DNA from: Escherichia coli
GTDB taxonomy: Bacteria > Pseudomonadota > Gammaproteobacteria > Enterobacterales > Enterobacteriaceae
DNA: 64,000 nucleotides
Assembly: GCF_030013205.1 (NCBI RefSeq)
Contig: NZ_CP122648.1
Reading direction: 5' to 3' (one strand)
Each line of letters starts with the position of its first letter. Position 1 is the first letter of the stretch. The notes under the pieces are model-generated. The model was not told where the DNA came from. It worked only from the letters and a program-made list of their open reading frames with translations, and did no database searches. Made by a program: the position numbers and the translations under genes. Below, piece after piece: positions 17,321-43,058 of the stretch.

Positions 17321-17567
17321 AATCTCGCGCTAACAACCTGGAATCGAGCCGTCATACTACGGCGCAACGCCCTATAAAGTAAACGATGACCCTTCGGGAA
17401 CTTCAGGGTAAAATGACTATCAAAATGTGAATTGTAGCTGACCTGGGACTTGTACCCGGGTCGGTATTTTTTTGCTTCTGGTCCCGGTGAGGAGTTATGC
17501 CGGGCAGGCCGAACAGCCGGGGTGGGTGAAGACTTGCCCCATCAGGAATATTCAAGAGGTATAACAA

Positions 17568-24124: not shown

Positions 24125-24211
24125 GCCGAGGTGGTGGAATTGGTAGACACGCTACCTTGAGGTGGTAGTGCCCAATAGGGCTTACGGGTTCAAGTCCCGT
24201 CCTCGGTACCA
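24125..24211 (+). tRNA. leuU: tRNA-Leu (GAG anticodon), 87 nt
   Basis: GCCGAGGTGGTGGAATTGGTAGACACGCTACCTTGAGGTGGTAG...CCTCGGTACCA with long variable arm and encoded CCA; 14 bp after secG. Confidence 0.95.
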
Positions 24212-27991: not shown

Positions 27992-28068
<77 letters not shown>

Positions 28069-28182
28069 CTTTAGTCCTTTTTCAAATATACTGTGAAGAC
28101 TTCGGCCTTCGTAGTGGGATTTGAAAAAATCCTTCTGGAAAGTGCTCCAGACCGCAGTTGCGGTTATAGGGTTCAGTTATAT

Positions 28183-28208
28183 AAAGCCCCGATTTATCGG
28201 GGTTTTTT
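28183..28208 (+). terminator. Hairpin terminator/attenuator between metY and rimP
   Basis: AAAGCCCCGATTTATCGGGGTTTTTT. Confidence 0.7.
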
Positions 28209-28267
28209 GTTATCTGACTACAGAATAACTGGGCTTTAGGCCCTTTTTTTATGTCTTGGGGGTGGGC

Positions 28268-30259: not shown

Positions 30260-32908
30260 ATGACAGATGTAACGATTAAAACGCTGGCCGCAGAGCGACA
30301 GACCTCCGTGGAACGCCTGGTACAGCAATTTGCTGATGCAGGTATCCGGAAGTCTGCTGACGACTCTGTGTCCGCACAAGAGAAACAGACTTTGATTGAC
30401 CACCTGAATCAGAAAAATTCAGGCCCGGACAAATTGACGCTGCAACGTAAAACACGCAGCACCCTTAACATTCCTGGTACCGGTGGAAAAAGCAAATCGG
30501 TACAAATCGAAGTCCGCAAGAAACGCACCTTTGTGAAACGCGATCCGCAAGAGGCTGAACGCCTTGCTGCGGAAGAGCAAGCCCGTCGTGAGGCAGAAGA
30601 ATCGGCTAAACGCGAGGCGCAACAAAAAGCTGAACGTGAGGCCGCAGAACAAGCTAAGCGTGAAGCTGCTGAACAAGCGAAACGTGAAGCTGCGGAAAAA
30701 GACAAAGTGAGCAATCAACAAGACGATATGACTAAAAACGCCCAGGCTGAAAAAGCCCGCCGTGAGCAGGAAGCTGCAGAGCTCAAGCGTAAAGCCGAAG
30801 AAGAAGCGCGTCGTAAACTCGAAGAAGAAGCACGTCGCGTTGCTGAAGAAGCACGTCGTATGGCGGAAGAAAACAAATGGACTGATAACGCGGAACCGAC
30901 TGAAGATTCCAGCGATTATCACGTCACTACTTCTCAACATGCTCGCCAGGCAGAAGACGAAAGCGATCGTGAAGTCGAAGGCGGCCGTGGCCGTGGTCGT
31001 AACGCGAAAGCTGCGCGTCCGAAGAAAGGCAACAAACACGCTGAATCAAAAGCTGATCGTGAAGAAGCACGCGCAGCAGTACGTGGCGGTAAGGGCGGAA
31101 AACGTAAAGGTTCTTCGCTGCAGCAAGGCTTCCAGAAGCCTGCTCAGGCCGTTAACCGTGACGTTGTGATCGGCGAAACCATCACCGTTGGCGAACTGGC
31201 GAACAAGATGGCGGTTAAAGGCTCTCAGGTCATCAAAGCGATGATGAAACTGGGCGCAATGGCAACCATCAACCAGGTTATCGATCAGGAAACCGCACAG
31301 CTGGTTGCTGAAGAGATGGGCCACAAAGTTATCCTGCGTCGTGAAAACGAGCTGGAAGAAGCGGTAATGAGCGACCGTGACACGGGTGCAGCGGCTGAAC
31401 CGCGCGCGCCGGTTGTGACCATCATGGGTCACGTTGACCACGGTAAAACCTCTCTGCTGGACTACATTCGTTCAACGAAAGTGGCCTCTGGCGAAGCGGG
31501 CGGTATTACCCAGCACATTGGTGCATACCACGTTGAAACTGAAAACGGCATGATCACCTTCCTGGACACCCCGGGGCACGCCGCGTTTACTTCAATGCGT
31601 GCTCGTGGTGCGCAGGCAACGGACATCGTAGTCCTGGTTGTTGCTGCCGACGACGGCGTAATGCCGCAGACCATCGAAGCAATCCAGCACGCGAAAGCGG
31701 CGCAGGTTCCGGTGGTCGTTGCAGTGAACAAGATCGATAAACCAGAAGCCGATCCGGATCGCGTTAAGAACGAACTCTCCCAGTACGGCATCTTGCCGGA
31801 AGAGTGGGGCGGTGAAAGCCAGTTCGTACATGTGTCTGCGAAAGCGGGTACTGGTATCGATGAGCTGCTGGACGCTATCCTGCTGCAGGCGGAAGTTCTG
31901 GAACTGAAAGCGGTACGTAAAGGCATGGCGAGCGGTGCGGTTATCGAATCCTTCCTCGATAAAGGTCGTGGTCCGGTTGCTACCGTTCTGGTACGTGAAG
32001 GTACTCTGCACAAGGGCGATATCGTTCTGTGTGGCTTCGAATACGGTCGTGTTCGTGCGATGCGTAACGAACTGGGTCAGGAAGTGCTGGAAGCGGGTCC
32101 GTCCATTCCGGTGGAAATCCTCGGCCTGTCCGGCGTTCCGGCTGCGGGTGATGAAGTTACCGTTGTACGTGACGAGAAGAAAGCGCGTGAAGTTGCACTC
32201 TATCGTCAGGGTAAATTCCGCGAAGTTAAACTGGCGCGTCAGCAGAAATCTAAACTCGAGAACATGTTCGCCAACATGACCGAAGGCGAAGTTCACGAAG
32301 TGAATATCGTCCTTAAGGCAGACGTACAGGGTTCTGTGGAAGCTATCTCCGACTCCTTGCTGAAACTGTCTACTGACGAAGTTAAAGTGAAGATCATCGG
32401 TTCTGGCGTAGGTGGTATCACCGAAACCGACGCTACCCTGGCTGCGGCGTCCAACGCCATCCTGGTTGGCTTCAACGTACGTGCTGATGCCTCTGCACGT
32501 AAAGTGATTGAAGCGGAAAGCTTGGATCTGCGTTACTACTCCGTCATCTATAACCTGATCGACGAAGTGAAAGCGGCAATGAGCGGTATGCTGTCTCCGG
32601 AACTGAAACAACAGATTATCGGTCTGGCGGAAGTTCGTGACGTATTCAAATCACCGAAATTTGGTGCCATCGCAGGTTGTATGGTTACCGAAGGTGTGGT
32701 TAAACGTCACAACCCGATCCGCGTTCTGCGCGACAACGTGGTTATCTACGAAGGCGAGCTGGAGTCCCTGCGCCGCTTCAAAGATGACGTTAACGAAGTC
32801 CGTAACGGTATGGAATGTGGTATCGGCGTTAAGAACTACAACGACGTCCGCACTGGCGATGTGATCGAAGTATTCGAAATCATCGAAATCCAACGTACCA
32901 TCGCTTAA
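30260..32908 (+). CDS. infB: Translation initiation factor IF-2
   Basis: 882 aa; GTP-binding motifs GHVDHGKTS and DTPGH; Glu/Ala/Arg-rich N-terminal repeats. Confidence 0.95.
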
Positions 32909-32921
32909 GGTTGTCTGGGTT

Positions 32922-32998
32922 GTAGGCCGGATAAGGCTTTTACGCCGCATCCGGCAGCCGTTGCCTGATGCGACGCTAGCGCGTCTTATCAGGCCTAC
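32922..32998. repeat. BIME: two inverted REP units between infB and rbfA
   Basis: GTAGGCCGGATAAGGC..GCATCCGGCA and GCCTGATGCGACGCTAGCGCGTCTTATCAGGCCTAC. Confidence 0.8.
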
Positions 32999-33026
32999 AC
33001 AGCCCTTTCCACCTGAGATTAATTTT

Positions 33027-33050
33027 AAAAGGGGCTATGGCCCCTTTTTT
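33027..33050 (+). terminator. Hairpin with T-run upstream of rbfA
   Basis: AAAAGGGGCTATGGCCCCTTTTTT. Confidence 0.6.
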
Positions 33051-33066
33051 GTCAGGAGAATTTATT

Positions 33067-33468
33067 ATGGCGAAAGAATTTGGTCGCCCGCAGCGCGTAG
33101 CGCAGGAAATGCAAAAAGAGATCGCTCTCATCCTGCAGCGTGAAATTAAAGATCCTCGTCTGGGCATGATGACCACCGTTTCCGGTGTCGAAATGTCTCG
33201 CGACCTGGCGTATGCCAAAGTATATGTAACGTTCCTCAACGACAAAGATGAAGACGCGGTTAAAGCGGGCATCAAAGCGCTGCAGGAAGCTTCTGGTTTC
33301 ATCCGCAGCCTGCTGGGGAAAGCGATGCGCCTGCGTATCGTGCCGGAACTGACCTTCTTCTACGACAACTCGCTGGTTGAAGGGATGCGCATGTCAAACC
33401 TGGTGACCAGCGTGGTCAAACATGACGAAGAACGTCGTGTTAACCCGGACGACAGCAAGGAGGACTAA
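33067..33468 (+). CDS. rbfA: Ribosome-binding factor A
   Basis: ORF 33037..33468 trimmed to [10 protein letters not shown] (133 aa). Confidence 0.95.
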
Positions 33469-34464: not shown

Positions 34465-34830
<366 letters not shown>

Positions 34831-34846: not shown

Positions 34847-34875
34847 AAAAGGGGGCCTGAGTGGCCCCTTTTTTC
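34847..34875 (+). terminator. rpsO rho-independent terminator
   Basis: AAAAGGGGGCCTGAGTGGCCCCTTTTTT. Confidence 0.8.
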
Positions 34876-35076
34876 AAGCTGACGGCAGCAATTCACTGGA
34901 AACTAATGTATTGTTGCTATGAATGATCTTCCGTTGCAGAGGTTCGCGCGGCTAATGAGAGGCTTTACCCACATTGGGCTGGGTTAGGGTTGTCATTAGT
35001 CGCGAGGATGCGCAGAAGATCGGGTATTAACACCAGTGCCGTAAGGTACTGTCTAAGAAAGAGAAAGGATATTACA
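34876..35076 (+). promoter_or_regulatory. pnp leader region (promoter and autoregulatory RNase III-processed leader)
   Basis: About 200-nt untranslated region between the rpsO terminator and the pnp UUG start; role assigned from established knowledge of pnp autoregulation, hairpin not mapped here. Confidence 0.45.

Positions 35077-41680: not shown

Positions 41681-43058
<1,378 letters not shown>

Follow-up and report, generated by a model that had tools for sequence, protein, structure and literature searches.

The window is the whole 64,000-nucleotide (64 kb) stretch of Escherichia coli chromosome that was analysed, and its gene order is nusA-infB-rbfA-truB-rpsO-pnp-nlpI-deaD-mtr-IS621-yhbW. 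Two inverted REPs in the infB-rbfA spacer form a two-unit BIME, of which REP2 is the second unit; ACAGCC lies directly 3′ of REP2, and 28 nt of unique spacer separate REP2 from a terminator-like hairpin located 4 nt 5′ of the rbfA Shine-Dalgarno. The features of this region are as follows.

32906-32908: infB stop codon
32909-33066: infB-rbfA spacer
32922-32955, minus strand: REP1, a Z-type palindromic unit (minus-strand tail ATCCGGCCTAC, with C at target position 4)
32963-32998, plus strand: REP2, a Y-type palindromic unit and the element under study, GCCTGATGCGACGCTAGCGCGTCTTATCAGGCCTAC
32988-32998, plus strand: 11-nt IS621 target ATCAGGCCTAC, with its CT core at 32995-32996
32999-33001, plus strand: target positions 12-14, ACA, the optional extended right-target
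33027-33050, plus strand: terminator-like hairpin, AAAAGGGGC-UAUG-GCCCCUUUU followed by a U run
33054-33058: rbfA Shine-Dalgarno
33067: rbfA start codon

An earlier note on this DNA had described an unoccupied REP at 32963-32998 as the second REP of the BIME after infB, and its sequence was found to be as given there. Using as the definition of a Y-type REP an imperfect palindrome of ~35 nt with the arms GCCTGATGCG ... CTTATCAGGCCTAC, located outside genes, REP2 has both consensus arms, folds as a hairpin, and is extragenic (between the infB stop at 32908 and the rbfA start at 33067). REP1 starts 13 nt past the infB stop codon, and REPs within ~15 nt of a stop codon reportedly reduce translation of the upstream gene, a result ascribed to Liang, Rudd & Deutscher in 2015. 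The REP pair (32925-32995, plus strand) matches the REP-derived Rfam family naRNA4 (nucleoid-associated ncRNA 4, CssrE) with 78.9 bits relative to a gathering score of 59.5. This match does not show that there is an naRNA gene at 32925-32995, and is likely due to the naRNA4 family having been built from a REP cluster. A literature search for REPs together with infB and rbfA returned no paper.

The RNA fold of the spacer is far stronger than that of shuffled sequences (z = -5.8). The predicted hairpin at 33027-33050 has a 9-bp GC-rich stem that is present in both the MFE and centroid folds, and looks like an intrinsic terminator or attenuator within the operon. It was called from the fold and not from the consensus terminator scan of 32700-33300, which reported no terminator and missed this hairpin. 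The loop and upper stem of the hairpin differ between alleles of the spacer (CTATGG versus CTAACAG). Elsewhere in the window the RNA elements are expected and ordinary, being the greA leader, two tRNAs, the rimP leader, the S15 leader and SraG (17351-17472, 24125-24208, 27992-28065, 28150-28250, 34503-34617 and 34847-35018).

The window also carries the IS621 element whose guides were used to assess the spacer, with the guides assigned after Durrant 2024 and Hiraizumi 2024.

41740-43019, plus strand: resident IS621, 1,280 bp, in a REP between mtr and yhbW
41803-41811, plus strand: LTG, ATCGGGCCT, within the target-binding loop guides (41803-41836)
41828-41834, plus strand: extended RTG, TGCGTAG, with the handshake bases AT at 41835-41836
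41932-42912, plus strand: IS621 recombinase gene, 326 aa, intact

The recombinase matches NCBIfam NF033542 (IS110 family RNA-guided transposase) with 253.6 bits relative to a cut-off of 140, and in identical genomes it carries the RefSeq name IS110-like element IS621 family transposase. Together with a non-coding left end that encodes the bridge RNA, and CT at the end of both junctions, this places the resident element in the IS110 family. The left flank ends in ...CTTATCAGGCCT (41728-41739) and the right flank begins with ACGTAGG (43020 onward); when rejoined, these flanks give the empty mtr-yhbW site, which 4,837 of the 5,426 complete E. coli genomes contain without interruption, so that the resident IS621 is a simple insertion. 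The left end of the resident element is identical to that of the copy in a multi-copy genome, and comparison with the copy in the multi-copy strain 2012C-4221 showed three differences, one of which is R221C in the recombinase. The Durrant supplement contains the variants TTGGGTTCTAACC and TTAGGTTTCAACC of the target-binding loop hairpin, and the hairpin of the resident element, TTAGGTTTTCAACC, has one base more than these. Swine ETEC/O139:H1 genomes match the window at 100% identity in the regions that were compared.

Targeting of REPs by IS621 was already described by Choi, Ohta & Ohtsubo 2003, as cited in later work, and wild-type IS621 in BL21(DE3) was reported to insert at 173 genomic sites, 144 of them in REPs and 129 of them reading ATCAGGCCTAC (Durrant 2024, PMC11208160). 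The published target is 11 nt, either ATCAGGCCTAC or ATCGGGCCTAC, with the CT core at positions 8-9 (PMC11208160). The sequence at 32988-32998 is an 11/11 match to this natural target, and the window contains no other copy of the full ATCAGGCCTAC. The 14-mer CTTATCAGGCCTAC is common to REP2 and the occupied mtr-yhbW site, and the window has just two copies of CTTATCAGGCC (32985 and 41728), which bears out the motif identity that the earlier note had drawn between the two loci. This identity exceeds chance because both are copies of the Y-type REP family consensus; it is the REP consensus, and no link between the infB-rbfA and mtr-yhbW loci, that lies behind the shared motif. The likeness does not single the site out, as 129 such sites were used in one genome (Durrant 2024), and this kind of site is already known, with more than 100 other REPs per genome carrying an IS621 landing site.

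Scoring of the infB-rbfA site against the window's own bridge RNA guides, a check that the earlier note had proposed for all REPs of the genome, showed eight Watson-Crick pairs plus a G:T at position 4 for the LTG, and 4/4 paired positions (8-11) for the RTG, so that over positions 1-11 the pairing equals that of the occupied mtr-yhbW site, which has the same strand and orientation. At the handshake positions 6-7 the site has G and C, matching the in vitro tDNA of Hiraizumi 2024. The 3′ tail of REP2 would thus present ATCAGGCCTAC to the IS621 bridge RNA as do other consensus Y-type REPs, with the LTG pairing to the bottom strand at positions 1-9 and the RTG to the top strand at positions 8-11, recombination occurring at the CT core, and the element inserting after 32996 in plus orientation. 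The site looks competent but not privileged: judged by its sequence it would be a target for the resident IS621, located 8.7 kb downstream, and one among many equivalent REP targets. REP1 was considered as a second IS621 target and rejected, as the C at position 4 gives a G·G clash with the guide instead of the tolerated G:T.

Occupancy of the site was surveyed in 5,426 complete E. coli genomes, which contain about 12,000 IS621 ends, using chimeric junctions consisting of 200 bp of the IS621 right end joined to 200 bp of the rbfA-side flank, and of the infB-side flank joined to the IS621 left end. The right junction at infB-rbfA was present in 0/5,426 genomes (best coverage 53%), as was the left junction (0/5,426; best coverage 74%, with those matches belonging to the gsk BIME), whereas the real mtr-yhbW right junction, included as a positive control, was present in 387 genomes. 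Among the junction 30-mers, one reads CATAACAGTATCTACACAGCCCTTTCCACC and the left one consists of the REP tail ...GCGTCTTATCAGGCCT followed by the IS621 start TGTATTATCC; the infB-rbfA junction 30-mer had no match in metagenome contigs, where exact matching makes this a weak test. The infB-rbfA flank has 0 entries in the Durrant natural target catalogue. Three other canonical BL21 sites that were sampled (tldD-yhdP BIME) are likewise missing from this catalogue, and absence from it is therefore not unusual. The population-genome check that had been suggested for the site thus yielded no insertion at either flank, and the proposal that the site is a secondary insertion hotspot is not supported, although the emptiness carries little weight given the polymorphism of the target.

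The target itself is polymorphic. A 50-mer covering the target and its unique flank was present in 508 of 5,426 genomes (~9%), whereas 5,420 have a spacer of equal size, and alignments of sampled genomes showed that the majority allele, which includes K-12, BL21(DE3) and O157, reads ATCAGG(C/T)CAAC and is without the CT core. The allele states in the sampled genomes are as follows.

SCEC020023, GPEC673 and CH4796 (window-type): ATCAGGCCTAC, CT core
O157 Al Ain, AHB1, WP5 and M1/5: ATCAGGCCAACGTGAAC, CA core plus four extra bases
K-12 (J53) and BL21(DE3): ATCAGGTCAAC..., CA core
Rb-50: ATCAGGACTAC, CT core

A third allele, with the CT core plus GTGA, was present in 7 genomes, and SJC33 and HCP4S3_I4 carry mosaic alleles. 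Compared with the sampled genomes, the spacer (32909-33066) falls into two deep haplotypes and mosaics. The REPs of the window-type haplotype keep consensus outer tails (GTAGGCC ... GGCCTAC), and the centroid fold shows that these two tails can base-pair, whereas in the majority type (K-12, O157 and others) both tails have decayed (CCATGCG ... GG(C/T)CAAC) and there are four extra bases. The outgroups are split on the core, being CA in E. albertii and CT in the divergent ‘E. coli’ E69; E. albertii has a window-like REP1 together with a CA-core REP2. What is new at the locus is mainly this variation of the core between strains, the only addition to a known kind of site, and the earlier note had missed that the target is present at infB-rbfA in only ~9% of E. 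coli genomes. The infB-rbfA site was therefore beyond the reach of the published genome-wide assay, which was run in BL21(DE3) with its non-permissive allele.

A two-part query combining the permissive 50-mer with a 40-mer of the IS621 donor-binding loop was used to determine how often target and element occur together. There were 1,772 genomes matching either part of the query and ~11,800 IS621 copies; the number of IS621 carriers is estimated at roughly 1,300 genomes, about a quarter. Among 60 listed genomes with the exact permissive allele (listed in arbitrary, not random, order), 56 were without IS621 and four had 1-4 copies; the genomes with both the permissive allele and IS621 among the matches listed were N3, CFSAN018748, 1190 and K_EC180. 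Few lineages combine the two, that of the window among them. IS621 therefore seems scarcer alongside the permissive allele (4/60 in this arbitrary sample, versus roughly a quarter overall), which is probably a lineage effect. Since the permissive target and the element rarely coexist, zero occupancy is explained by that alone. We consider it likely, with a probability of about 80%, that the infB-rbfA REP is an ordinary Y-type REP with a competent IS621 target that is not a hotspot and is empty mainly through small opportunity: the permissive version and IS621 are probably rarely together, as only ~9% of genomes offer the CT-core allele and most of those are without the element. We infer from sequence that IS621 could use the site in vivo; the observations that speak against such use are R221C in the resident recombinase, the rarity of ACA at positions 12-14, the lack of a junction in 5,426 genomes and in metagenome contigs, and the absence of the flank from the natural catalogue.

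Selection may have acted in addition. IS621 may use the site with the resulting insertions being purged because they are polar on rbfA and truB, which is compatible with small opportunity and plausible as a second cause of the emptiness, but possible rather than probable. Large insertions of any kind are rare in the spacer, as 5,420 of 5,426 genomes have it whole (coverage of at least 80% at a single place). According to a 2026 preprint, the 5′ stem-loop of the bridge RNA of IS621 has intrinsic-terminator-like activity in a reporter, and after insertion it would be located in the infB-rbfA spacer. A scan of 32700-33300 gave no sigma-70-like promoter, consistent with rbfA needing read-through. 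Taken together, the terminator-like stem-loop and the lack of a promoter near rbfA make it probable that IS621 inserted after 32996 would exert polarity on rbfA-truB. The occupied comparators lie between convergent or terminal genes and so do not serve as operon-internal comparisons. The mtr-yhbW site is between convergent genes, and the gsk-ybaL BIME (strain 2012C-4221), which is ~93% identical to the infB-rbfA BIME, consists of a Z-type followed by a Y-type REP and likewise begins a few bases past a stop codon (gsk), is occupied by IS621 in many genomes, unlike infB-rbfA; as gsk and ybaL are convergent, insertion there has no downstream operon gene to affect. This BIME is a useful natural comparator for the infB-rbfA site. 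Against purging, limited opportunity already accounts for zero occupancy, and the cost of an insertion may be modest. The genes upstream of the site, nusA and infB, are essential, whereas rbfA and truB, which a polar insertion would affect, are dispensable, their loss impairing ribosome maturation and growth in the cold.

It is unlikely that the site is mechanistically disfavoured despite its 11/11 match, through the C·A at position 12, the adjacent hairpins, or high transcription of the operon. The 14-nt infB-rbfA target is ATCAGGCCTACACA. Positions 12-14 of the mtr-yhbW target are GTA (pair, wobble, pair), whereas the ACA of infB-rbfA (mismatch, pair, pair) has two of three positions paired with the bridge RNA UGC, the C·A mismatch at position 12 being the sole difference from the pairing of the occupied site. 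GCA is found at positions 12-14 in four of the ten most-used BL21 sites, where it is not obligatory, and a longer RTG gives better on-target specificity (PMC11208160). Among the ~596 natural contexts, taken from Durrant 2024 supplement file 15, the triplet at positions 12-14 is ACA once, GCA 44 times and GTA 18 times, so that ACA is rare in the natural catalogue. The core 11 nt, however, account for 96% of detected insertions whatever the flank (PMC11208160), and A at position 12 is common: natural contexts with ATCAGGCCTAC have A in 238, G in 294, C in 58 and T in 6 cases (n=596), which is 40% A. ATCAGGCCTACAC was found 28 times in the same catalogue, and the IS621 WT in vitro target oligo (Durrant supplement) is ATCAGGCCTACAGATG, with A at position 12. 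The occupied gsk target ATCAGGCCTACATA also has A at position 12, reads ATA at positions 12-14, and lies in the same BIME architecture, and absence from the natural catalogue is shared with the three BL21 sites mentioned above. The view that a decisive right flank beyond the core excludes this site, which the earlier note had named as what would overturn it, is not borne out by these natural sites. The natural IS621 sites in Y-type REPs (Choi 2003; PMC11208160) share with infB-rbfA the ATCAGGCCTAC tail, the CT core, the G:T at position 4 and the orientation rule; infB-rbfA differs from them in having ACA and not the favoured GCA, in having no recorded insertion, and in that the target-bearing allele is in the minority.

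A further reading concerns the majority allele, in which the outer tail of REP1 has decayed besides the loss of the CT core: the change of the core from CT to CA could have been driven by selection against bridge-recombinase insertion within a ribosome-biogenesis operon. Selection of this kind would explain the apparent mutual avoidance of the permissive allele and IS621 (4/60 listed versus roughly a quarter), and would mean that the tails of operon-internal REPs evolve ‘immunity’ to IS621. We regard it as very unlikely: the avoidance is more simply accounted for by shared lineage ancestry, and the outgroups disagree on the ancestral state. That REP2 resembles the occupied site merely by chance and without biological meaning, for which only the shortness of the motif speaks, has next to no probability and was rejected, as shuffles gave an expectation of 0.03 copies of CTTATCAGGCC with 0/100 reaching two, both copies lie in REP hairpins (with naRNA4/REP membership), and their bases are the REP consensus across hundreds of natural IS621 targets in the catalogue.

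The site has little importance beyond annotation, as a preference of IS621 for Y-type REPs was described as early as 2003 and explained by RNA guidance in 2024. The polymorphism does bear on prediction: since the CT core is present in ~9% of genomes and absent from K-12 and BL21(DE3), natural and off-target insertion of IS621 should be predicted per strain, and surveys of reference strains neither include nor exclude the infB-rbfA site. If insertion took place, for example in the swine ETEC/O139:H1 lineage, two directly repeated IS621 copies would lie 8.7 kb apart and bracket rbfA, truB, rpsO, pnp, nlpI, deaD and mtr.

Comparable systems are the IS110-family elements ISPpu9 and ISPpu10 of Pseudomonas putida, which encode bridge-RNA recombinases that use a fixed position in a REP hairpin (PMC12288879; bioRxiv 10.64898/2026.03.19.712850). 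Their left target is in the 3′ arm of the hairpin, like that of IS621 at REPs, whereas host, REP family and guides differ from those of IS621. For ISPpu10, the target hairpin itself was reported to boost recombination (PMC12288879; bioRxiv 10.64898/2026.03.19.712850).

At the occupied site, the mtr-yhbW right flank CTACGTAGGACAGCG (window positions 43020-43040) appears 17 times in the Durrant catalogue (supplement file 15), where it is joined to several left contexts, one of which ends in the donor-like AACAGTATCT. These varied left contexts suggest that in some genomes IS621 copies have recombined with each other, or that the junctions are tandem or hybrid.
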